A DNA stretch of 64,000 bases from Promethearchaeota archaeon (lineage in GTDB: Archaea; Asgardarchaeota; Lokiarchaeia; Sigyniarchaeales; SOKP01): the NCBI GenBank assembly GCA_048941285.1, contig JBHLNS010000014.1, positions 1-64,000 of the forward strand, given 5' to 3'. The notes beneath the pieces were generated by a model, which worked only from the letters and a program-made list of their open reading frames with translations, had not been told where the DNA came from and did no database searches. The position numbers and the translations under genes are program-made. Shown in pieces: positions 17,204-35,498 of the stretch (the first letter of the stretch is position 1; each line of letters opens with the position of its first letter).

Positions 17204-18508
17204 TTAGAAATAGAAATAGTTATATTTAGTTTTTTTATTTTGATTCTTTTTGACAAATGACTTCTTTCCAAGTACAACTATTACACAAATTAATGATATG
17301 ATTAAAAAAATCAAATAATAATTTCCAAATGGAATGATTTGGTCACTTCCTCGTATATTTTTGAACAAATAAAAACAATTATCTCCTGTGGCTGCTATAT
17401 ATTTACCATTATCAGATATTGCAATCGGGTCGTTATTATTAATCCCATCTCCATCTAATTTATACCTCCAATATGGATTAGAACTATACTTCCTATACAA
17501 ATGAAGATATCCCGTTATTGATTCCATTGCAATAATACTACCATTATAACTAGTTACTACTGACAAAGGCTGATTTCCTACACTCATACCTTTTGTCCAT
17601 AAAGGTGTAGATTTAAAAGAATTAAAGAAATATAGATAACTATGATCTCCTGCAATAATATATTTACCATCTTGAGAAAGATCCAACGAAATAATTTCAT
17701 TTGATGTCGCATAACTCCATATTGGAACATTACTACTTCTATTAAAAAAATAAAGCTCATTACCATTTTCTTGTAATCCTACAGCAATAAAATTCCCATC
17801 TGAAGATATTGAGACTTTGGAAGGGTCTTCGTCTGATGGCTTTGTAAAGGCCCAAATTGGAGTAGAACTTGATCTATGGAATAAATAACAGTGTCCATCA
17901 TTAGCTCCTGAAACTAAATAATTCCCGGCAGAATCCATGTCTACATCTAAATAAAGTTCGCCACCCCCAATATTAAAGCCCCATTGGGGTGTAGAGCTTC
18001 CATTATTTAATAATTCTGTTTCTCCACCCCCCGCAACCATATAAGTTCCATTGGAAGAAATGTCAACTGAATATACCCATGATCCAATATCATTACTCCA
18101 AATTGGAGTTGAACTGGACCGATCAAAATAAAAAACAGAACCATCATGTGCACTGACAATAAAGCTGGAACCATCAGAAGTCATTTCAACGTCAGCCAAG
18201 TAATCACTATGTGTGAAAGTCCATAAAGGTATTTTTGTGGAGGATGGGCTATTATCAAATAGATAAACCTTATTATCTCCCCCTAAAGCAACAATATAAT
18301 TCCCATCAGCCGATATTGTGATTGCAGCTGTATGATCATTACCAATACAGTAAGACCATACCATCGTGGTTTTATAATTCGCTTGAGACATTTTCAAATT
18401 ATCATATATTGGATTTTGAGTGTTTGTTAAGATCAATCCCAGAAATGCAGAGACTGTACTAGAAATTAAAAGAGAACATATTAGTAGAATTTTTAAACGG
18501 ATTTTCAT
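17204..18508 (-). CDS. Secreted beta-propeller (WD40/PQQ-like) protein with C-terminal membrane anchor
   Basis: Signal peptide, repeats of the form VDISSNG.Y.VAG...YLF..SSSTPIW, C-terminal IPFGNYY + TM + basic tail (Loki-CTERM-like). Confidence 0.85.
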   Translation of the reverse strand: MKIRLKILLICSLLISSTVSAFLGLILTNTQNPIYDNLKMSQANYKTTMVWSYCIGNDHTAAITISADGNYIVALGGDNKVYLFDNSPSSTKIPLWTFTHSDYLADVEMTSDGSSFIVSAHDGSVFYFDRSSSTPIWSNDIGSWVYSVDISSNGTYMVAGGGETELLNNGSSTPQWGFNIGGGELYLDVDMDSAGNYLVSGANDGHCYLFHRSSSTPIWAFTKPSDEDPSKVSISSDGNFIAVGLQENGNELYFFNRSSNVPIWSYATSNEIISLDLSQDGKYIIAGDHSYLYFFNSFKSTPLWTKGMSVGNQPLSVVTSYNGSIIAMESITGYLHLYRKYSSNPYWRYKLDGDGINNNDPIAISDNGKYIAATGDNCFYLFKNIRGSDQIIPFGNYYLIFLIISLICVIVVLGKKSFVKKNQNKKTKYNYFYF

Positions 18509-20473: not shown

Positions 20474-21271
20474 TTAACTAACTTTCTTAAATACCATAAC
20501 TAGGATATCTGGATAAAATCCGCATCCAAATTGTTTAATCTTAATACCATATTTATTCCATACATCTTGAAATTTTCTCGCTTTAACATTATATAATTTA
20601 AATAATTTAGGAGCTTCTTCACAGGCAAATGAAATTTCTTCTCTTGTCTGTTCCATATTCATTTTCTTAAACGTTTTTAGTATAAATTTATGCTCTAATC
20701 GGAATCCAATTCTAGAAAGATACTTGATATAAAATTTAGGAGGATAAAAAATACTATTTAATCCAATGTACTCCCATATCCTCCAATTTAACATACTTGA
20801 AGGTTCATTTCCTTTTACCATTATAGCAATTTCTATAATTCCTTTATTTTTTATAATTCGTCCTAGTTCTAGAAGGGTTAAAATAACTCCATTTTTACCA
20901 AGAGTCATATTTATATCTTCCAATCCTAAAAAATTAACAATGCAATCAAAAGTTTGATCTCTAAAGGCAGTTATTGATGAATCCATTATAATATACTGGA
21001 TATTTTGAGAAATTTCATTCTTTTTAGCACTGGTTCTTTTAAATGAATCAAAATCATTTACTAAACCAATATCTACTATTTTTCCATTAAAACCTTGATC
21101 AATTATAGCGAAAGAGAGAAAACCATGACCAGCGGCTAAATCCATAATGAATTTACTTTTTAATAAATCAAATTTGAGCAAATATGCTACAATTTTTTGC
21201 CGAAAAGAACAAAAATCTCTAAAAATCTCTTTATATTCCTCTTCAGTTAAGAATTTAATATCTTGTTCCAT
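20474..21271 (-). CDS. Class I SAM-dependent methyltransferase
   Basis: IMDLAAGHG motif I, FRDQTFDCIV, RIIKNKG. Confidence 0.85.
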   Translation of the reverse strand: MEQDIKFLTEEEYKEIFRDFCSFRQKIVAYLLKFDLLKSKFIMDLAAGHGFLSFAIIDQGFNGKIVDIGLVNDFDSFKRTSAKKNEISQNIQYIIMDSSITAFRDQTFDCIVNFLGLEDINMTLGKNGVILTLLELGRIIKNKGIIEIAIMVKGNEPSSMLNWRIWEYIGLNSIFYPPKFYIKYLSRIGFRLEHKFILKTFKKMNMEQTREEISFACEEAPKLFKLYNVKARKFQDVWNKYGIKIKQFGCGFYPDILVMVFKKVS

Positions 21272-21405
21272 ATTTTATCCTAGTCTTCATATCTTTATTT
21301 TATTAAATTTTAATTATACCTTATTAACAAAAATTATAAAATCTTGAAGAGAGCAGATACTAAAACAATTCATAGAAAAGATAAAATAGAAGAAATATAA
21401 GTTAT

Positions 21406-21972
21406 TCATCTTATTTGATAAAAGGCAGTTTTAATACTGCTTAAATTAAAAATAGTTGTATCAAACATAAGATATGATGTAAATTGTTCATTTAAAAGAG
21501 GTTCTACCTTATCCAAAAATTTTAATTTTAGGTTTTTCACATGAGGGTCATAACCAGGGTCCATTTTATGAAAAATGAATATTAATTTAGCATCTGGACT
21601 ATATTTTTTAATTTTATTAAAAACACCAGTAAAATACATTACAGAAGGGATAAGTCTATAATAGTCTTGAATATCTATCACATAATAAAAGAATTCGATA
21701 GCATGAAAAAATTTTTCTGGATTCGCCAAATATTCATTACGATAAGTTTCTTGGCCCCCAAAATCCCAAATTATAATTTTTTTATTAAATAAAGTTACAG
21801 GATTTCTTACGACACCTTTAGTTGGGGTCATGATAGGTGGTTTATTTGGAACTTCATCAGATTCTTGGGTAAGTATATTTAAAATAGTGGTTTTACCAGC
21901 ATTTTCCATTCCCATAATTACAATTTTAATTTGTTTATCATCATTTTCTGTATATTCCATTCCTCTTATCAT
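21406..21972 (-). CDS. Small GTPase, Rag/Arf-like (G domain only)
   Basis: G1 GMENAGKTT, G2 PT, G3 WDFGGQ, G4 HKMD (His-type G4 as in Rag/Gtr). Confidence 0.9.
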   Translation of the reverse strand: MIRGMEYTENDDKQIKIVIMGMENAGKTTILNILTQESDEVPNKPPIMTPTKGVVRNPVTLFNKKIIIWDFGGQETYRNEYLANPEKFFHAIEFFYYVIDIQDYYRLIPSVMYFTGVFNKIKKYSPDAKLIFIFHKMDPGYDPHVKNLKLKFLDKVEPLLNEQFTSYLMFDTTIFNLSSIKTAFYQIR

Positions 21973-21993
21973 CTCTAATTTTTAATTTATACC

Positions 21994-22917
21994 TTATATA
22001 AATGAGGATGATTTAATTATACTTGCGATTTTGTTCCAAAATTCTTCTTTATCCCAGCTCTTTTGTTCTTTATATATAGCTGACAATTCAATAAAAATTT
22101 GCTTAACTTTTAAAGATTGAAAATATGTAATCTTTGGGGCAATAACAGCAATCATAAAGTCTTTATTACCACCTCTATACGATTTATCGGGATAGGAGTC
22201 AAAAAACACGTATGCCATGAAATTAAAATTATTTACATTTATTAAAAGGCCCTCAGCACGAGTTATATACTCTTGTCCATATATAGAAGATACTGCATCG
22301 TAAAGTTGACTACTAACTTTTTCAATTGGAATATTTAATTTAATATTTCTAGGAAAATAATCGTCCAATTTTGGTCCAACAACATCATCCCAACTCACTT
22401 CAATTAATACTATTAAATCTTTAAAACTTTCAGAAATTAATCCCGTTTCAATCTCATTTGATAAATAAATCTCACTAATTTTCTCATTAATGATATTAAT
22501 AGTTTTACTACGTTTAAGTTTTCCAAATATCGTTGCGACTAAATCATCTTCATTTATTGGGATTGTGAGATAATCATCTACACCAAGCATTTTTCCAAAT
22601 CGAATATCTTCTGGTGAGTCGAGATTAGAAATAAAAATAAAGGGTATATGACTGAAAGTTGGGCTATTAGAAATTGCATTAAAAAAGGTATAACCATTCA
22701 TTTCTGGCATCATAATGTCGCTAATAATCAGATCAGGATATACTTTTTGCTCTGAAAGAATTTTTAGTGCTTCCTTTCCGTTTTTAGCAGTTATCACTTG
22801 ACATTCGTTAAATTCTAATATTCTCTTTATATCTTTAGTAATACTTGGATCATCTTCGACTATAAGTATCAATGGTTTCAGTTTATATCCCTCCAATGGG
22901 AAAACAATATCTAACAA
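21994..22917 (-). CDS. Response-regulator receiver domain fused to a longin/uDENN-like domain
   Basis: N-terminal ILIVEDD...DLIISDIMMPEMNG. C-terminal IEVSWDDVVGPKL..FP resembles the longin/uDENN beta-hairpin motif, followed by RGG..FMIAV. Confidence 0.75.
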   Translation of the reverse strand: MLDIVFPLEGYKLKPLILIVEDDPSITKDIKRILEFNECQVITAKNGKEALKILSEQKVYPDLIISDIMMPEMNGYTFFNAISNSPTFSHIPFIFISNLDSPEDIRFGKMLGVDDYLTIPINEDDLVATIFGKLKRSKTINIINEKISEIYLSNEIETGLISESFKDLIVLIEVSWDDVVGPKLDDYFPRNIKLNIPIEKVSSQLYDAVSSIYGQEYITRAEGLLINVNNFNFMAYVFFDSYPDKSYRGGNKDFMIAVIAPKITYFQSLKVKQIFIELSAIYKEQKSWDKEEFWNKIASIIKSSSFI

Positions 22918-23002
22918 AAAGCAATTAATATTTATGATTTCCTAAATTTAAATTTAATATTTCAAAATTCAAAAGAGAATTAAAAGAAAAAAATGAATTA
23001 AA

Positions 23003-23386
23003 ATGGATACACAGGAATTTATGAAACATCTAAATAAAATTCAAGAATTGATGGAACGAGAAGATTATAAAAAGGCAATAAATTTAATTGAAAAATTAAA
23101 AAAGGTTGAAAAAGAAGCTGAATTTGGCTATAACCTCACTCATAGGCTATATCAGTTAGATTCTAACTCCCATTCACTTTATAATCAACAAATAATTCTT
23201 GTATATGTCAAAGATTTATCTAAAAAGAAAAATACTATTAGTTTTCAAGAATTAAATCAAATTGTAGCAGCCAAAAAGGAAATTACCCTTTCTGAAGATA
23301 TCCTTAGAAGAGAAATTGAGCTTTTAATATTAAGAAACCAATTACCTTGGAAAATTGAAAAAGACACAATTATTTTAAATTCCTGA
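23003..23386 (+). CDS. Hypothetical helical protein, possible PCI/winged-helix C-terminus
   Basis: ISFQELNQ...LRREIELLILRNQLPWKIEKDTI resembles a wHTH/PCI end. Confidence 0.55.
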   Translation: MDTQEFMKHLNKIQELMEREDYKKAINLIEKLKKVEKEAEFGYNLTHRLYQLDSNSHSLYNQQIILVYVKDLSKKKNTISFQELNQIVAAKKEITLSEDILRREIELLILRNQLPWKIEKDTIILNS

Positions 23387-23398
23387 TAAATTTAAGAA

Positions 23399-25330
23399 CT
23401 ATTGATCTGAAAGTAATGACTCTCTTTTTTCGTTAATCTCCGCAAGAAAAAGGTCCGCAAGTTTTAACCATTTGTTTTTTGATTCTAAATCGCTTATAAT
23501 TTTCCTTGTTAATTCCTTACCTCTCTGAAGATTTTGAATTGCTAATTCAATATTTTCAAGTGCTGTATAGCAAATTCCAATTTTAATATAAGTCTGGTGG
23601 ATAAACCACTCATTAGGATCAATTTCTATTGCTTTTTGGAATTCATTTATTGCTTTTTCATACTCTTTAAAGGTTATTAAAAGTTCTCCGTATGTGTCAT
23701 GATAAATTCCTTTTTCTGGTTCACTCTTTAAAAGTTCGCCAAGAATTTTCAAAGCTTCTTGTTTTTTACCTAAATAAGATAACCAATAAGCTTTATAATT
23801 ATGAAGAGAATTGTCTTCAGGATATTTTTCAACTAATTTTTCTATGATTTTTAATCCTGCTTCGAGATTTTTATCTTTTTTAAGTGTATATGCCTTTTTA
23901 ATCAAGATATCAATTTCTTTTTCAGGAAAGAGTGTTATCATATTTTCTAATACTTCTATTACATCTTTATATTGGTTGAAATAGAGTAGAATTCTAATTT
24001 TTGAATAATACAATTCATAATTATTTGGATTTAAGTTGATTTCGCGATTAATTTCTTTAATTTTTTCATTGTATTGAGATTCTAACATTTCAGCATCCTC
24101 TGATTGTATAATCTCTGCTATGTTCTGCCAAATTATTCCTTCTAGTTTATCATAAGCCTCTGTTAATTCCTTTTTTATCTCTATTTTATATGCTAAATAT
24201 TTTATATATTGAGGTAAAAATTCTCTCAATGATTCTTTGAAATCACCATGGAATAACACTTTACAAAGTTCTTCAAGAATCCCATCTATAATAGAATTTA
24301 AGCTCCCTGACTTTCCAAATTTCTCCAAATATTTGTTTGATGCAATATGCTCTTCGGTAATTGCTCTAAGTATCCTCTCTAATTTTTCATCTGAATGAAA
24401 ATAATAATATTTATTTGAAGAAATATCTAATTTAAAAAACTTTAAATCGTATAAGTCGCTTTCTACGATTTCATTTACCCAAAAATCAAGTATCCTCTTT
24501 TTAATATTAAAAAATCTCGAAAAATCTTCAAAAGACAGATAATCTGGATAAAAATTAGGATGATTCATTGATAAAAAAAGTAAAATTTTATGAAAATCCT
24601 CTTCATCTTTTAATATTGCGCTAACCTTTGAATAGTCTAATTTTAGCACATTATTCAAAAATCTAAATTTTACATGATCATCCGTTATGTTAAACTTATT
24701 AAAAAACTGTGAAGTTTTTGTGGTAATAGCATCAATTCTTTTTTTTTCCTCCTCCAATATTGTTTGTCTGTCCAAATTATATTGTTGTAGAATCCTTGAA
24801 TATTCTGATTTTCCTGATTGAGTTATTATGTATCTTTTATTTTCTTTGGTGAGAAATCCTTTTTGAATTAACATATTTAGGCTTTTTGATAATGAGGATT
24901 GATTAATTGAGAAGGGTTCTTCAAGAAAATCAGATCTTTTGCAAAAACCATTATTATAAACCATCCATAGAATCCAATGAGAATAATTCCTGCCCCTTTT
25001 CAAAATGACTTGAGGGGGATAACTTAATTTTCGTTTCTTTTTGCTTTCTTTTGATAGTACATGAAATCTCTGTTTTCCTTTCGGGGTTATTCTGTATTGT
25101 CCCCTAGAAAATTTCTCAATATATCCTTTGAGGATTAATTTTGTAAAATGACGCGATAATGTGGCAATAGGAATTTCAATAGGCTTTTGCTCAAAATCAG
25201 ACCATTCACAACTTTCATTATTAGCTAACATCCAGAGAATTATATGCTCGTAATTCCTTCTTTGTAGCTTCGAGGGGTTAAGAATCTCTTCTACCGGATA
25301 ATTTAACTGTCCCATTCTATATGAAAACAA
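23399..25330 (-). CDS. Tandem winged-helix plus TPR protein, putative transcriptional regulator
   Basis: Two repeats (RNY.H.ILWM...C..SDF...P..I....LS....L..KG......Y.IT..GK); C-terminal TPRs (YHDTYGELL, EFQKAIEIDP). Confidence 0.85.
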   Translation of the reverse strand: MFSYRMGQLNYPVEEILNPSKLQRRNYEHIILWMLANNESCEWSDFEQKPIEIPIATLSRHFTKLILKGYIEKFSRGQYRITPKGKQRFHVLSKESKKKRKLSYPPQVILKRGRNYSHWILWMVYNNGFCKRSDFLEEPFSINQSSLSKSLNMLIQKGFLTKENKRYIITQSGKSEYSRILQQYNLDRQTILEEEKKRIDAITTKTSQFFNKFNITDDHVKFRFLNNVLKLDYSKVSAILKDEEDFHKILLFLSMNHPNFYPDYLSFEDFSRFFNIKKRILDFWVNEIVESDLYDLKFFKLDISSNKYYYFHSDEKLERILRAITEEHIASNKYLEKFGKSGSLNSIIDGILEELCKVLFHGDFKESLREFLPQYIKYLAYKIEIKKELTEAYDKLEGIIWQNIAEIIQSEDAEMLESQYNEKIKEINREINLNPNNYELYYSKIRILLYFNQYKDVIEVLENMITLFPEKEIDILIKKAYTLKKDKNLEAGLKIIEKLVEKYPEDNSLHNYKAYWLSYLGKKQEALKILGELLKSEPEKGIYHDTYGELLITFKEYEKAINEFQKAIEIDPNEWFIHQTYIKIGICYTALENIELAIQNLQRGKELTRKIISDLESKNKWLKLADLFLAEINEKRESLLSDQ

Positions 25331-25956: not shown

Positions 25957-26131
25957 TTCATAAGGTTAAATCCTAATTTATTAAAATTATGTCTCACACA
26001 AAGTGAAATTAACTATAAAAACAGGTTAAATTCAAAATTTCTTTTCTTCACATTAAATTTAAAATGATAATTAGCTTAGTATTTTCATAAGGTTATAACC
26101 CAAATCTAGTAAATTAATGTCTCACGCAGAG
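25957..26131 (+). repeat. Imperfect direct repeat (~47 bp) of the upstream region and first codons of the TPR-longin gene
   Basis: 25957-26003 ttcataaggttaaatcctaatttattaaaattATGtctcacacaaag vs 26084-26131 ttcataaggttataacccaaatctagtaaattaATGtctcacgcagag. Confidence 0.8.
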
Positions 26132-28060
26132 CTAAACCAATTAACGAAAGCGGAATACTTTTTTAATACTTGCAAGATTGATGAGGCTCTTGAACTATTA
26201 AACGATGATAGTTTGTATGAGGGACTTGATCTTGAGCAGAAAAGATACTTTCAATTCCTTAAGGGCTTAATTCTTTTATATCGACATGATATCGAAGAAG
26301 CTATTCAGGTAGGTGAACAAATGCTAAAAGAAGGCCAAAAATATAATGATAATGTCTACTCGTTTGATGGACTATTTCTTATTATTGATGGACTGGTTAT
26401 AACTTATAAATTTGAGGAAGCAAAAATAAAAATTGAAGAAGCTGAAAATGTATTAGAACTTATTTCCACTAAATCTAGAAAAATTTTAATGCTAAGAGAG
26501 GTTCGTTTAGATTTATTAAGAGCTGCGATGAATATTGAGCTAAACAATTTTGATATAGCAGAAATGTACTTAAAAAAACTTTTTGAATCTCAAAAAGAAC
26601 TTGGAAATAGATGTGAATTTGCTAGGGCAAATTTGATACTGGCAAGGATTATGATGTGGGGAAAAAGTAGATTCGATCTTGCTTTGGACTGTTCTAAAAA
26701 AATATTATCAATAGCAAAGGAAATCAAATTTAACCATTACTGGATCGCTGTAGGTAATGCTGTTGCGGCGGTATCATATCAAAGCATTGGGGAGTTAGAG
26801 GATAGCTTAGAACATTGTATGAAAGTTGATGAAATTATTAAAAAATTTAAAAGTAATTTATATATTGCGGGTACATTAAATAATATAGGAAATCTCCATG
26901 CTGAGCTTGGCGATTATGAAATGGCTTTGCAATATTTAGAGGAAAGTTTAAAATTTTGGGAGCTCGATCCTTTACGAATAGAAGGTTGTATTGACAGTAT
27001 AATAGCTGTAGCTCTTAAAAAGGGAGATATTGTTCTTGCTCAAAAGTATTTCCAACGCTTAGAAAATATCTATAATCAAGCACCCAATAGTCAATACTGC
27101 GAATTTGTTTACAACTATAATAAAGCTTTAATTTTGAAAAATAGTTCTCGAATCAGAGATAAAGCTAAAGCTGAAAAATTATTTAAACGTATATTAAAGA
27201 CAGAAACTACAATTGCTGACATAAAAATTAACTCATATATTCATCTTTGCGATTTATTTTTTGCTGAATACCGTGTGAATAAGAATGATGAAGTTCTTGA
27301 AGATATTAATCAAAATATTTCTCAATTATTAGCTATTGCTGAGAAATCAAAGTCATATATAGTTTTCTGCGAAACTTTCATATTACAAGCTAAATTGGCT
27401 TTATTAACTTTTAATGTAAAAGCTGCCCGACGCTTTTTGACCCAAGCACAGAAGATTGCAGAATCATACGGGTTAAAACGACTAGTAATGAAAATTTCAA
27501 TAGAACATGATTACTTACTAAAAGAATTGCATAAATGGGAAATCTTTAGTGAATCCAATGCAAGTCTGACGGAGCGCATTGAATTAGCTCGAATAGATGA
27601 TCAAATGACAGACATGCTAAAAAAGCGATCAATGAAACTACCAATGATTTCACAAGAAGATCCTGTTATGATTTTAATCTTAACAGAGGGAGGCAATCTT
27701 TTGTTCTCTAAAAAATTTAAAATGGATTTTTCTTTTGAAGATGATATTTTAGGAGGTTTCCTAACTACTGTAAATTACGTTATTAATGAGGTATTTTCTG
27801 AAAGTCTTGATAGGGCGGTTTTTGGTCAATACACGCTTCTTATGATGCCCCTTAAACCATTTTTAGTGTGTTATGTCTTTAAGGGGGCTTCATATTACGC
27901 TTACCATAAGATTAAAAATTTTCTTGATTCAATTCAGAAGGATAATCTTATTTGGCAATCTTTGCAGAATTTTTTCCAAGAGAGTAAATCAGTTGAATTA
28001 CATAATATTCCAAAACTTGATTCGTTAATAAAAGAAATCTTTGTTGAGGAAAAAAATTAG
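26117..28060 (+). CDS. TPR-repeat protein with C-terminal longin-like domain
   Basis: TPRs (TLNNIGNLHAELGDYEMALQYLEESL); C-terminal MILILTEGGNLLFSK...DDILGGFLTTV longin-like fold. Confidence 0.82.
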   Translation: MSHAELNQLTKAEYFFNTCKIDEALELLNDDSLYEGLDLEQKRYFQFLKGLILLYRHDIEEAIQVGEQMLKEGQKYNDNVYSFDGLFLIIDGLVITYKFEEAKIKIEEAENVLELISTKSRKILMLREVRLDLLRAAMNIELNNFDIAEMYLKKLFESQKELGNRCEFARANLILARIMMWGKSRFDLALDCSKKILSIAKEIKFNHYWIAVGNAVAAVSYQSIGELEDSLEHCMKVDEIIKKFKSNLYIAGTLNNIGNLHAELGDYEMALQYLEESLKFWELDPLRIEGCIDSIIAVALKKGDIVLAQKYFQRLENIYNQAPNSQYCEFVYNYNKALILKNSSRIRDKAKAEKLFKRILKTETTIADIKINSYIHLCDLFFAEYRVNKNDEVLEDINQNISQLLAIAEKSKSYIVFCETFILQAKLALLTFNVKAARRFLTQAQKIAESYGLKRLVMKISIEHDYLLKELHKWEIFSESNASLTERIELARIDDQMTDMLKKRSMKLPMISQEDPVMILILTEGGNLLFSKKFKMDFSFEDDILGGFLTTVNYVINEVFSESLDRAVFGQYTLLMMPLKPFLVCYVFKGASYYAYHKIKNFLDSIQKDNLIWQSLQNFFQESKSVELHNIPKLDSLIKEIFVEEKN

Positions 28061-28165: not shown

Positions 28166-28708
28166 ATGAAGAATTCTGAGACATTTCGGTTTAAGATAGT
28201 AGTTGTTGGAGATGGTGCAGTAGGAAAAACGTCCTTAATTAAGAAATTCACAAAAGGAACATTTGAAAAGGATTATGTAAAAACGATTGGTGCTCAATTT
28301 TCAAAATATAACAAGGAATTTAATGGAGATACGGTTAAATTAGTATTTTGGGATATAGCAGGACAAGATGATTTCAATTTTTTACATCACCTATTTTATA
28401 AAGAGAGCAAAGCAGCGATCATAGTATATAGCCTTGAACAAAATGAACTTGGTCAAAATAGCTTTGCTCATATAAAGAATTGGTTTGAAGTAATAGATAA
28501 AAATTGTGGAACTATTCCGATTGTTTTATTTGTCAATAAAGTTGATTTAGTGGATGAAAAATGTATAAATACATCAAAAATCCAAAGACTTGTTGATGAT
28601 CATAATTTTTTAAAATTTTTTTTCACATCAGCTAAAACAGGACAAGGGGTAGTTGAGGCATTCAATGCAATTATAGAGCAGTTATATTTAAAGTTCAAAA
28701 CTTTTTAA
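28166..28708 (+). CDS. Rab-like small GTPase
   Basis: GDGAVGKTS, TIG, WDIAGQ, NKVD, SAKTG; no C-terminal prenylation Cys. Confidence 0.95.
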   Translation: MKNSETFRFKIVVVGDGAVGKTSLIKKFTKGTFEKDYVKTIGAQFSKYNKEFNGDTVKLVFWDIAGQDDFNFLHHLFYKESKAAIIVYSLEQNELGQNSFAHIKNWFEVIDKNCGTIPIVLFVNKVDLVDEKCINTSKIQRLVDDHNFLKFFFTSAKTGQGVVEAFNAIIEQLYLKFKTF

Positions 28709-34589: not shown

Positions 34590-35498
34590 TTAATCCGTAT
34601 GTGCAGATATTATTAAATCTGCAAATAATTTCATATCATTTAATAACATATTTAACTTGTCTTGAGATGCTCTGTCTAGTTCTCCAGATTTCATTACAAG
34701 TACAGAAATGATATATTTAAAGATATGGAGTTCAATTTCCTTACCATCTCCATCTCGGCCCCAGAATTTAGAAGAATCTGCCATAAAAATGTTCTCTCGA
34801 ACTGTATTACATGCATTAATGAAGTCTCTTAAATCCCCTCTTAATGTTAAACCGCTACTAACTCCTTGAACATTATGTACTATAACATTTCCAGAAATGT
34901 CTGCGATTATAACTTTAGCTTTAATTTCATCCAATTGTTTTTCGGCTTTTTCTACGTGGGCTTTTAATTCAGCGTATTCTGATATCAATACATCTCTGAA
35001 AACTTTTGCTAATTTGTCTTCTTCATAAATACTTGTAAGCATATAATCAAAATCATAATCCTTAAATATATCTAGGAAGAGATCTTTTGCCTTTTTCACG
35101 TTAGTATCAAGGAGTTCTTTCTGATAATCCTCAGTATCATACTTATGAAGAAATAAAAAGATCTTAGGTTTTTCATTATTTTTACGATACAAATCTAATA
35201 GATTAATGAAATAATCTTTTGCCTCTTGAAATGTTTTTGGGTCATGTAAATCAACAATAGGAATAAGTATGTCAGTTCCGCGAAAGATTTCAGGTTTTTC
35301 CATATATTCTTTCCTAAATTGTTCCTGACCTCCAAAATCAAAGATACCAACTTGAAGTCCAAGGAAAGGATGCCTTCGAGTCTCATATAAAATTGTGGGT
35401 GCTAATCCCTTTGTTTCTTCTGGGCGTTTAGCGGCAAAAGCAACTGAATAGACGCTTGTTTTACCGCAACCTGATAAGCCTACGAGTGAAATTTTCAA
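34590..35498 (-). CDS. Rag/Gtr-like GTPase with C-terminal roadblock-like domain
   Basis: GLSGCGKTS, APTI, FLG, DFGGQ, HKYD, TSI; about 110-aa C-terminal domain (VIIADISGNVI). Confidence 0.85.
   Translation of the reverse strand: MKISLVGLSGCGKTSVYSVAFAAKRPEETKGLAPTILYETRRHPFLGLQVGIFDFGGQEQFRKEYMEKPEIFRGTDILIPIVDLHDPKTFQEAKDYFINLLDLYRKNNEKPKIFLFLHKYDTEDYQKELLDTNVKKAKDLFLDIFKDYDFDYMLTSIYEEDKLAKVFRDVLISEYAELKAHVEKAEKQLDEIKAKVIIADISGNVIVHNVQGVSSGLTLRGDLRDFINACNTVRENIFMADSSKFWGRDGDGKEIELHIFKYIISVLVMKSGELDRASQDKLNMLLNDMKLFADLIISAHTD

Follow-up and report, generated by a model that had tools for sequence, protein, structure and literature searches.

A receiver-longin protein encoded beside a stand-alone Rag-like GTPase in an Asgard archaeon: a candidate two-gene relative of the eukaryotic longin GAPs

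Why should an archaeon join a bacterial-type receiver domain to a longin domain, and encode the product next to a small GTPase that resembles the Rag proteins? Could such a pair of genes reflect how Rag GTPases were controlled before eukaryotes? The origin of Rag-type nutrient signalling is an open question in eukaryogenesis. We analysed a 64,000-nucleotide stretch of DNA from an Asgard (Loki-type) archaeon, here called the window, in which the genes for a receiver (REC)-longin protein and a small Rag-like GTPase lie in one small operon (Table 1). The original prediction had described this locus as a bacterial-type phosphorelay input wired to a eukaryote-type GTPase switch, a candidate proto-GATOR/FLCN module. 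Fold, Rag-like GTPase, conserved pairing and a modelled complex speak for that description, whereas the phosphorelay input is doubtful here and the type of fusion had been published before. We give about an even chance to the reading that the two genes make up a module in which an atypical response regulator, with a longin output of the NPRL2/FLCN/C9orf72-SMCR8 kind, acts on a bare Rag-like G domain.

Table 1. Coordinates of the receiver-longin and GTPase features within the window.
Feature	Position	Strand	Basis
Receiver-longin protein gene (atypical response regulator), 307 aa, TTG start	21994..22917	-	ORF list
REC domain, residues 17-130	22528..22869	-	Pfam PF00072, E 8.5e-24; 70-homologue alignment
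D67 codon of REC	22717-22719	-	70-homologue alignment
Ile119 codon (replaces conserved Lys of REC)	22561-22563	-	70-homologue alignment
Longin domain, residues about 170-302	22012..22410	-	AF2 model, Foldseek against PDB
WDDVVGP hairpin, W176-P182, between strands b1/b2; 'GP motif' and 'WD' pair	22372..22392	-	
Arg248 (domain R103), b4-b5 loop, candidate arginine finger	22174..22176	-	Conservation and complex model
Intergenic spacer	21973..21993	-	21 nt to first ATG; 33 nt to conserved start 21960
Stand-alone Rag-like GTPase gene, 188-aa ORF (184 aa from conserved start)	21406..21972	-	
GTPase P-loop	21889-21912	-	GMENAGKT
GTPase DFGGQ	21751-21765	-	
GTPase HKMD	21559-21570	-	

The open reading frame list places both genes on the minus strand, co-oriented as had been proposed, and the predicted 21-nt gap is present between the stop at 21994 and the first in-frame ATG at 21972; homologues share the ATG at 21960, which sets the gap at 33 nt. 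Around the pair, the window encodes a 127-aa protein, a wHTH-TPR protein and a methyltransferase. A bacterial-type scan of positions 21200-23100 returned 7 promoter-like sites against 14.3 expected and 2 terminator-like sites against 0.5 expected, with no terminator-like site between the two genes, and is uninformative because its consensus is not archaeal. The C-terminal 147 residues of a TPR protein at 26117-28060 were considered as a second longin, given a b-b-a-b-b-b-a order recognised by eye only; hhalign against our longin-domain alignment A1 gave a probability of 0.3 and Pfam returned nothing, and so the segment is not called a longin.

The GTPase carries the motifs GMENAGKT, DFGGQ and HKMD, the first of which we take to be more Arl-like in look. 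Its best Pfam family is Gtr1_RagA (2.2e-18), only 8 bits over Arf (4.5e-16). Sequence comparison with PDB entries returned 8zla (2.3e-31), 8yl2 (6.7e-25) and Gtr1/RagA (about 2e-11), and Foldseek placed LokiRagO, Gtr1, RagA and RagD at the top; the YSPDAK...HKMD and TTIF/TSIW region is common to the window GTPase, Gtr1 and RagA. AF2 models the protein as a single G domain with nothing further attached (184 aa, pLDDT 89.7), a length of about 184 aa being usual among the homologues, and a C-terminal roadblock domain is absent from both the 188-aa ORF and the single-domain model. The protein is therefore Rag-like rather than a true Rag, in agreement with what had been predicted. LokiRagO (8yl2) and LokiRagM (8zla, 9m28), the closest solved G-domain relatives (Foldseek TMq 0.82 and 0.69), measure 342 and 385 aa and have extra C-terminal parts, whereas the window GTPase is a G domain alone. 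A literature search on the PDB entries 8zla, 8yl2, 8yqg and 9m28 found no relevant paper. NCBIfam assigned only generic response-regulator and small-GTPase models to the two proteins, all below their cut-offs except small_GTP.

What, then, is the C-terminal half of the neighbouring protein? AF2 gives its last ~135 residues the longin topology b-b-a-b-b-b-a-a (pLDDT 79.5, pTM 0.77). With this model, Foldseek found 11 matches in the PDB at E<=1e-3. Heading this list are ~363-370-residue chains in GATOR1 entries (9v0j_A, 2.8e-5, TMq 0.51) and chains in SEAC entries. A chain of the FLCN-FNIP2-Rag-Ragulator entry (6ulg_N) and a Lokiarchaeal longin, 8yqg, come next at E 3.4e-4 each, ahead of DENND1A/B and the Lst4 longin. 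TM-scores in this fold search are moderate, at about 0.5. The modelled topology and the matches to GATOR1, SEAC and FLCN-FNIP2 chains bear out the longin assignment. The protein stops ~5 residues past the last longin helix, and neither a C-terminal DENN domain nor the C-terminal domain specific to NPRL2 is present.

The domain contains IEVSWDDVVGPKLDDYFP, and the (F/W)DxxxGP hairpin expected there is found as WDDVVGP. The best PDB sequence match, at a non-significant E of 0.19, is the C9orf72 longin, whose W33-D34...G38-P39 aligns with the WD...GP of the window protein. WDDxxGP is invariant in alignment A1; among 150 cluster representatives the W is kept in 113/118, the G in 113/120 and the P in 111/120. 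Conservation of the motif across these representatives indicates, at the level of sequence, that the observed features are not chance. Arginine fingers are known from NPRL2 (R78), FLCN (R164) and SMCR8 (R147). In the window protein, Arg248 is the candidate: 69 of 70 homologues have R there (the other has Ile), as do 101/134 cluster representatives. The loop in which the known fingers lie is not stated in the accessible text of 10.1101/2020.04.15.042515 or PMC9473554. According to the part of PMC12290439 available, the GP motif is a mark of GAP longins, absent from other longins including those of DENND and TRAPP, and the accessible text of PMC8213707 reports that C9orf72 W33G/D34K abolishes ARF1 GAP activity.

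Membership by sequence in the eukaryotic families was rejected. Pfam leaves the C-terminal half unassigned; NPR2, Folliculin and C9orf72-like did not match the window protein at E<=0.1, nor any of 14 aligned longin domains at E<=10. An Atlas feature search, taken for leads only, listed an archaeal cluster with NPR2 in 19% of its members (score 0.94).

How close does the pair come to the eukaryotic systems? The longin GAPs of eukaryotes are GATOR1 NPRL2-NPRL3, acting on RagA/B, FLCN-FNIP2, acting on RagC/D, and C9orf72-SMCR8, acting on ARF1. The window protein shares with them its nearest longin fold, the GP hairpin between b1 and b2, the WD pair as in C9orf72 and a Rag-like putative target. 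It differs in several respects. They are heterodimers, whereas the window protein is presumed to be a homodimer and lacks the DENN or NPRL2 C-terminal domain; they have no counterpart of its N-terminal receiver; and it has no Pfam match over the longin half, with Arg248 as a candidate finger only. The target, moreover, is without the Rag roadblock, and the system is without TOR, Ragulator or lysosome components. Searches of the window's genome turned up only one copy of the longin domain, so that it offers no second, paralogous partner from this subfamily.

Longins generally dimerise. We modelled two longin copies with one GTPase, the homodimer being an assumption. The median ipSAE was 0.61 (runs 0.83, 0.61 and 0.29, the last falling below the mark) against 0.00 for the best of three controls, so that the 2:1 longin:GTPase model passed its controls; solved look-alike complexes exist, and the pass may reflect likeness to them rather than binding. 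The mark is reached by 58/80 solved complexes and 2/110 mismatched pairs, a calibration made on single-chain pairs with the tool's own alignments. Across runs, at least 75% of contacts agree, and partner pLDDT is at least 79. Residues 31-38, 58-72 and 103-104 of both longin copies face GTPase residues 10, 12, 19-20, 43-52, 63 and 70-87, which sets both GP hairpins and the conserved Arg loop on the P-loop/switch I/II face in the model. A GTPase seated atop two longins that touch switch I/II is also the arrangement of C9orf72-SMCR8-ARF1, as described in the accessible part of PMC8213707.

We thus envisage that two longin domains would dimerise and that the dimer would use its two WDDxxGP hairpins, the helix a1/YGQ region and the b4-b5 Arg248 loop to cup the GTPase face that bears the P-loop and switches I and II. 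To judge by the motifs, it would most likely stimulate GTP hydrolysis, as eukaryotic GP-motif longins do. Could a longin dimer on this same face instead be a GEF, or hold the GTPase in one nucleotide state? The modelled interface cannot separate GAP from GEF, because many longin and roadblock platforms that use this face are GEFs. Such platforms are in the main exchange factors, among them TRAPP, Mon1-Ccz1, DENN and Ragulator (PMC3747258 and PMC10933270, as far as their accessible text goes), and a GEF would account just as well for the modelled contacts to the P-loop and the two switches. The GEF domains of DENND1A/B also figure among the longin fold matches. Yet these come after GATOR1 and SEAC chains, which are not GEF longins and head the list; a conserved Arg lies within the modelled interface; and the GP motif is, by the part of PMC12290439 cited above, specific to GAP longins and not to those of DENND or TRAPP. 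We therefore regard exchange activity, or the holding of one state, as rather improbable.

A role outside the nucleotide cycle has also to be weighed, and we consider it fairly unlikely. The longin protein might be an effector or scaffold of the GTP-bound GTPase, or might supply in trans the dimerisation platform of a 'split Rag'. True Rag proteins carry for dimerisation precisely the C-terminal roadblock domain that this GTPase lacks; in the metagenomic proteins P0072 and P0125 the G domain precedes the longin, the order found in Rag proteins, and Rag-family GTPases fused to longin domains are mentioned in the accessible text of Liu et al. (10.1101/2020.10.19.343400). A precedent comes from Myxococcus, where the receiver protein complex RomRX is reported to serve MglA-GTP as an effector and not as a GEF (PMC13408092, accessible part). 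On the other side, the domain has the topology of a longin and not of a roadblock, its match to the Rag/Gtr chains 8fw5_D and 7t3b_D (TMq 0.36 and 0.34) is much weaker than that to GATOR1 chains, and the model sets it on the switch face rather than at the C terminus of the G domain. Conservation, too, is highest in the WD/GP/Arg set, with which GAP longins line their catalytic pocket.

Is the pairing of the two genes more than an accident of one genome? We surveyed 201 Asgard genomes, taking as the orthologous GTPase any protein scoring at least 291.9 bits (the next score being 165.5). This stand-alone GTPase occurs in 7/201 genomes and adjoins the orthologous REC-longin in 7/7, downstream on the same strand in six and convergent in one. 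Co-occurrence is 7/7 in both directions and extends across three genera, and the same arrangement recurs in 5/5 named loci, at least one of which duplicates an earlier locus. The conserved pairing foreseen at the outset thus holds within the orthologous clade; of the outcomes named as fatal to the original prediction, neither a C-terminal fold other than longin nor an unconserved pairing coupled with no detected interaction arose. The pair is patchy: among the 41 sampled genomes that belong to the window's family, 7 have it. One orthologous pair lies in the Promethearchaeota genome CP070831.1, where the GTPase is 86% identical.

Phylogenetically, all seven orthologous pairs fall in a single clade (support 100/99) and so count as one evolutionary event; to explain the remaining GTPase neighbours of REC-longins takes 5 to 7 changes on the tree. 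Our neighbourhood survey covered 60 longin ORFs in 58 loci. An immediate small-GTPase neighbour was seen for 14 of the 60, Rag/Arf-like by best or near-best Pfam family in 12 of these 14, and none for the other 46, which make up the majority of the REC-longin paralogues. In 7 further loci a paralogous REC-longin has some other small GTPase next to it. Fusion also occurs: in P0072 and P0125 the longin is joined C-terminally to a G domain, of the Ras family in the former and of the Arf family in the latter. That the genes are mere neighbours, with the REC-longin acting elsewhere and the adjacency inherited by descent, would fit the single clade of the seven pairs and the abundance of small GTPases in these genomes (77 of the 3263 ORFs of at least 100 aa are GTPase-like in the window's own). 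We hold this to be very improbable, given the strict co-occurrence in both directions, an adjacency kept even in one locus of inverted orientation, other REC-longin clades that independently adjoin other GTPases, two independent longin-GTPase gene fusions and a complex model that passed its controls. Liu et al. (10.1101/2020.10.19.343400) state that ESP genes for the most part lack conserved neighbourhoods, and, as a point against our main reading, Tran et al. (PMC10933270) note for MK-D1 that operons generally do not combine GTPase genes with those for longins or roadblocks, each to the extent of the text accessible.

What does the receiver contribute? Pfam Response_reg (PF00072) covers residues 17-130 over 110/111 profile positions, and at E<=0.001 the whole protein has 70 homologues, nearly all with a REC and about 295-300 aa long. 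DD22-23, D67 and S97 are retained and Ile119 stands at the conserved Lys site (YLTIP), just as the original prediction had read the acidic pocket, the phospho-Asp and the Lys-to-Ile exchange. The Lys is absent from 21/21 of the closest homologues, which have I or L at that site, and the phospho-Asp is gone in 7/19 of the closest relatives that cover it; orthologues with the Lys still in place exist as well. The five-residue active site (DD, D, T/S, K) is thus incomplete in the window REC. Because the conserved Lys is missing, the REC of the window and its clade is, on sequence criteria, a pseudo-receiver as defined in PMC12632262. No histidine kinase gene adjoins the window pair in a Pfam scan of its neighbours. 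Among paralogous REC-longin loci, 30/60 have a kinase directly upstream by H-box pattern, two of them confirmed by Pfam, and paralogues that combine an intact REC with an upstream kinase exist. The 'bacterial-type phosphorelay input' is therefore doubtful here, with the Lys lost, the Asp partly lost and no adjacent kinase. We suppose that the N-terminal receiver sets the formation or the action of the longin dimer, probably through phosphorylation in those paralogues that have kept the REC intact and lie downstream of a histidine kinase gene, and probably independently of phosphorylation, or with weak dependence on it, in the window's clade. Decay of the receiver active site while the longin motifs persist makes this a clean case of how a pseudo-receiver protein arises from a response regulator.

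The type of fusion is not new. Liu et al. (2020, bioRxiv 10.1101/2020.10.19.343400) have already described Asgard proteins in which an NPRL2-like longin is joined to two-component domains; these are the same kind of protein, with the same range of partners as in our family survey (REC, HK-REC, PAS, GAF and RsbRD_N). The accessible text of that report names no partner GTPase or operon, whereas here one clade, whose REC has decayed into a pseudo-receiver, is without exception encoded next to a particular stand-alone Rag-like GTPase. Asgard longins of FLCN/SMCR8 type with a GP motif and an arginine finger have been described as well (Traffic 2025, PMC12290439), with the same motifs and the same proposed GAP role that we suggest for the window protein. 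The accessible part of that paper asks whether the partners are ArfR or Rag/Gtr GTPases, has 0 occurrences of receiver domains and gives no gene neighbours; the window locus offers a concrete candidate answer, in that it proposes a partner. In Myxococcus xanthus, a small GTPase (MglA), a dimeric roadblock-superfamily platform (MglB) and a receiver protein (RomR, with RomX) likewise belong to one circuit (PMC9481161 and PMC13408092, accessible parts), with the differences that MglB is a roadblock unfused to a REC, RomR is a separate protein and MglA is not Rag-like.

Might the pair also be a forerunner, minimal and homodimeric, of GATOR1 and FLCN-FNIP, which are heterodimeric GAPs? Each of two identical GP-motif longins would then bring its own Arg loop to a bare Rag-like G domain, and the REC, its phosphorylation chemistry gone in this clade, would have been reused as a phosphorylation-independent dimerisation or ligand-gated switch. 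This proposal is tentative and, in our estimation, on the doubtful side. If it were true, the workings of longin GAPs could be studied in no simpler system than these proteins of 307 aa and 184 aa, which would also afford a view of Rag control before TOR and lysosomes. The locus in any case defines a candidate regulator-target pair, one clade always beside one stand-alone Rag-like GTPase; small GTPases of other kinds occur next to other REC-longin clades or fused to them, and the model sets the conserved motifs on the nucleotide pocket. Since both proteins are small and soluble-looking, binding and GAP/GEF assays should be straightforward. Finally, 13 'longest contig' values, the window's own included, are common to the REC-longin and GTPase match lists; as an indirect sign, which we do not count as evidence, they hint at more co-located pairs in metagenomes.

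The REC-longin gene, which joins a receiver (REC) domain to a C-terminal longin-like domain, and the stand-alone Rag-like GTPase gene lie side by side in a window of ~29% G+C (see table). The spacer is 21 nt when counted from the first ATG of the GTPase, and 33 nt with its ATG at 21960, the start common to homologues. The original prediction had described this pair correctly in each checkable detail. Named relatives of both genes all carry Asgard labels, mostly Promethearchaeota (Loki) and some from Odin-, Hermod-, Hod- and Thor-labelled MAGs, with one Nanopelagicaceae bacterium protein as the sole exception. The closest orthologous locus (L002) also has the divergent 127-aa protein found upstream of the pair; three others (L003, L004, L008) lack it.

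Features of the window, with coordinates and strand
Feature	Coordinates	Strand	Remarks
Repeat protein	17204-18508	-	434 aa
Rag-like GTPase gene	21406..21972	-	188-aa ORF, same orientation as REC-longin gene
REC-longin gene	21994..22917	-	307-aa ORF
Coiled-coil-like protein	23003-23386	+	127 aa, divergent; upstream of the pair
Winged-helix/TPR protein	23399-25330	-	643 aa, two winged-helix domains and TPR repeats; upstream of the pair
TPR protein	26117-28060	+	647 aa
Ras-family small GTPase	28166-28708	+	Pfam Ras 2.3e-42; 105 nt downstream of TPR protein
Longer Rag-like GTPase	34590-35498	-	302 aa; Gtr1_RagA E 1.1e-24, residues 2-190, plus ~110 further residues

What is the C-terminal half of the REC-longin protein? 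A Pfam scan yields no match outside the receiver domain. With residues 145-307 as query, 70 proteins were retrieved at E<=0.001, nearly all of 287-320 aa and equipped with a REC domain. AlphaFold2, run on an alignment (A1) of the window's C-terminal part with those of 13 diverse matches, returned a confident model (pLDDT 79.5, pTM 0.77) in which the elements follow the order b1-b2-a1-b3-b4-b5-a2-a3, the longin topology. Foldseek searches of the PDB with this model gave 11 matches at E<=1e-3. Among them are ~363-370-residue chains from three GATOR1-KICSTOR entries (best 2.8e-5, TMq 0.51) and chains from the yeast SEA complex; chain N of 6ulg (FLCN-FNIP2-Rag-Ragulator), a Lokiarchaeal longin domain solved by crystallography (8yqg), DENND1A/B and the Lst4 longin also match. 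The GATOR1 subunits are unnamed in the search output; judged from chain length alone, they are probably NPRL2. Topology and fold matches thus agree with the predicted longin-like domain.

The predicted GP hairpin of GAP longins was likewise recovered. When the A1 profile was compared with PDB sequences, the C9orf72 longin ranked first at a non-significant E of 0.19, and over 130 aligned residues the W-D...G-P of the query falls on W33-D34...G38-P39. The GP motif is described as common to C9orf72, SMCR8, FLCN and NPRL2 and missing in non-GAP longins (PMC12290439), and a C9orf72 W33G/D34K mutant is reported to lose GAP activity towards ARF1 (PMC8213707). Because none of the Pfam models of eukaryotic GAP-longin families matches the REC-longin protein or the aligned domains, the kinship with these proteins is one of fold and motif, without a sequence-family match.

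A set of 1.84 billion cluster representatives, searched by profile, contained 231 matching proteins at E<=0.001 and 153 at <=1e-10, most of ~295 aa. Among 150 listed representatives, W31 (113/118), G36 (113/120), P37 (111/120) and R103 (101/134; domain numbering, Arg248 of the protein) are conserved. The domain occurs in 50 of 201 sampled Asgard genomes and is concentrated in the window's family (34/40, window's genome excluded) and one other family (10/10). In a Pfam scan of 19 family proteins of unusual length, the longin lies C-terminal to a Ras-family G domain in P0072 and to an Arf-family G domain in P0125; in metagenomic proteins P0078, P0088, P0097, P0219, P0103, P0106 and P0203, a GP-motif longin follows RsbRD_N, DUF1638, PAS, GAF, a hybrid kinase-receiver (HisKA-HATPase-REC, two proteins) or HATPase alone. 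Four of the 19 are REC-longin proteins with a C-terminal extension, and five are short, with a longin and no other domain. Since it follows so many different domains, the longin behaves as a general output module of signalling proteins.

The partner gene encodes a GTPase for which the label 'Rag-like' is supported. Pfam assigns it to Gtr1_RagA (67 bits) and Arf (59 bits), and its best PDB sequence matches are Lokiarchaeal 'GTP-binding proteins' (8zla, 2.3e-31; 8yl2, 6.7e-25), followed by Gtr1 and RagA at ~2e-11 and then Arl3; alignments reveal a KYSPDAK(L/I)F...HKMD stretch common to the GTPase, Gtr1 and RagA. The AlphaFold2 model is a single G domain (pLDDT 89.7), with the RagA-like small GTPase of Asgard Lokiarchaeota (LokiRagO; 3e-14, TMq 0.82) as top fold match, further matches to Gtr1, RagA and RagD, and Arf6 and Arl1 close behind. 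It lacks the C-terminal roadblock domain that defines true Rags, as had been predicted, and so is not one of them; its homologues, of ~184 aa, are stand-alone as well. Several longer Rag-like proteins, of ~300-490 aa, are encoded in the window's genome.

Is the pairing conserved? Across the 201 genomes, an orthologous stand-alone GTPase (called at >=291.9 bits; next score 165.5) is found in 7, belonging to three genera, and adjoins a REC-longin gene in all seven. Six lie 21-155 nt downstream in the same orientation; at L005 the GTPase is inverted yet remains directly adjacent to the REC-longin gene. Among named genomes, a scan uncovered 5 loci with GTPases at least 64% identical, each with a REC-longin gene directly upstream, although at least one (L092) is the same locus as one of the seven (L008; identical scores). 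Viewed from the longin side, in 60 longin ORFs at 58 loci, a small GTPase is the immediate neighbour of 14, against a background of 77 GTPase-like ORFs among the 3263 that the window's genome has at >=100 aa, and 46 have no adjoining GTPase. Seven of the 14 are the orthologous pairs; five further GTPases are Rag/Arf-like by Pfam (L027, L044, L045, L046, L049) and two Ras-family (L012, L051). When 54 REC-longin proteins were placed in a maximum-likelihood tree, with six rows outside 270-320 aa left out (L002, L008, L047, the second ORF of L045, L050, L055), the orthologous-GTPase group forms one clade (support 100/99), and the seven pairs represent a single evolutionary event. The other GTPase neighbours require 5 to 7 changes, and therefore the link between longin and small GTPase was gained or retained on several occasions. 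The REC-longin protein of L021 is sister to the GTPase-linked clade; two small same-strand proteins follow it (298-783 and 991-1344 of that locus, both -), one matching MAPKK1_Int (LAMTOR3/MP1 family; 27.5 bits, cut-off 25) and Robl_LC7.

Complex prediction with two longin copies (A1) and the GTPase as partner (A2, 51 rows) scored 0.61 (runs 0.83, 0.61, 0.29), compared to 0.00 for the best of 3 controls. The pass mark is met by 58/80 solved complexes and 2/110 mismatched pairs, counts that are only approximate for this job, which relied on our own alignments and was not a single-chain pair. Runs share at least 75% of contacts, with a partner pLDDT of at least 79. The model supports, without demonstrating, binding of the longin to the GTPase, as predicted, though the pass may reflect likeness to the solved complexes of C9orf72-SMCR8-ARF1 (7mge), active FLCN (8dhb) and GATOR1 in GAP mode (7t3b). 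In the best run, the longin side of the interface comprises residues 31-38 (WDDVVGPK) and 103-104 (Arg-Gly) of both copies, this Arg being a candidate equivalent of the known arginine fingers, together with helix a1 and the YGQ turn (58-72); the GTPase contributes residues 19-20 of the P-loop, 43-52 of switch I around T47, and 70-87 of switch II, Q70 onwards. Like ARF1 on C9orf72-SMCR8 (described in PMC8213707), the GTPase sits atop two longin domains. The modelled arrangement is compatible with a GAP; a GEF platform would contact the same GTPase face.

The receiver domain is recognised by Pfam at residues 17-130 (E 8.5e-24). In the window's protein DD, D67 and S97 are kept and Ile119 occupies the conserved Lys site, just as predicted. 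A receiver lacking any one of five active-site residues is termed a pseudo-receiver in PMC12632262, which adds that phosphorylation can survive such substitutions; judged by its residues, the window's domain falls under this definition. Among the 21 closest of the 70 homologues (66-100% identical in the longin), the Lys is Ile/Leu in 21/21, the first acidic residue is replaced in 12/21, and the phospho-accepting Asp is Ala/Asn in 7/19 covering the site. The remaining homologues, G-domain fusion P0048 aside, all keep the phospho-accepting residue (one Glu), Ser/Thr and Lys. Throughout the 70, WDD..GP and the Arg are retained save for one R->I, one W->F, one GP->GA, two D->N and one fragment without the WDD residues. 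A histidine kinase lies directly upstream on the same strand of 30/60 longin ORFs (H-box pattern; two Pfam-confirmed), and Pfam detects no kinase gene adjoining the REC-longin gene in the window. The predicted phosphorelay input is thus doubtful for this copy, given a pseudo-receiver and no adjoining kinase. We propose that kinase followed by REC-longin, as at the 30 loci, would be the ancestral order and that the GTPase-linked clade became an orphan without its kinase; in the window's sub-clade, phosphorylation chemistry may be decaying while the GTPase-facing surface is still under selection.

In the kinase-linked clade, two enzyme genes follow the REC-longin gene on the opposite strand, one for a PLP-dependent enzyme (PALP 3.7e-71) and one for a hexapeptide transferase (L006, L007, L010, L011, L013-L016, L022-L024, L026, L037, L038 and others); judged by their motifs, they look like cysteine synthase and serine acetyltransferase. 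This looks like a recurring kinase/REC-longin/sulfur-amino-acid neighbourhood. A very divergent clade (~80-85 bits, long branch; L054, L056, L057, L058), from four genomes of the window's genus, has REC-longin between FAD_binding_4 and CCG/4Fe-4S genes on the same strand.

Fusions of NPRL2-like longins to two-component domains have been reported from Asgard archaea, whose growth regulation was proposed to centre on two-component systems with 'eukaryotic' regulators (Liu et al., bioRxiv 10.1101/2020.10.19.343400); both this type of fusion and the general idea are therefore already in print. GTPase genes of MK-D1 are reported to lie generally outside operons with longin or roadblock genes (Tran et al., PMC10933270). 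A census of archaeal response regulators lists, for Thaumarchaeota, a REC output akin to Roadblock/LC7, its main text being silent on an Asgard longin output (PMC5847659). In the literature searched, we found no published statement of an operon of REC-longin and stand-alone Rag-like GTPase, though figures or supplements may contain one. The observation behind the original prediction is confirmed, and its interpretation as a candidate proto-GATOR/FLCN module is supported in part. The locus is a well-defined member of an already known type, not a new principle, and its value is that it names one small regulator-target pair.

Some 4 kb from the first pair, the TPR protein and the Ras-family GTPase may constitute another regulator-GTPase pair. 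By eye, the C-terminal ~147 aa of the TPR protein read b-b-a-b-b-b-a; hhalign against the longin alignment gave a probability of 0.3 and Pfam nothing, and no longin assignment was made. The repeat protein, with hydrophobic segments N-terminal and C-terminal and about eight repeats ending S-S-(S/K)-T-P-(I/L)-W, looks like a membrane-anchored beta-propeller.
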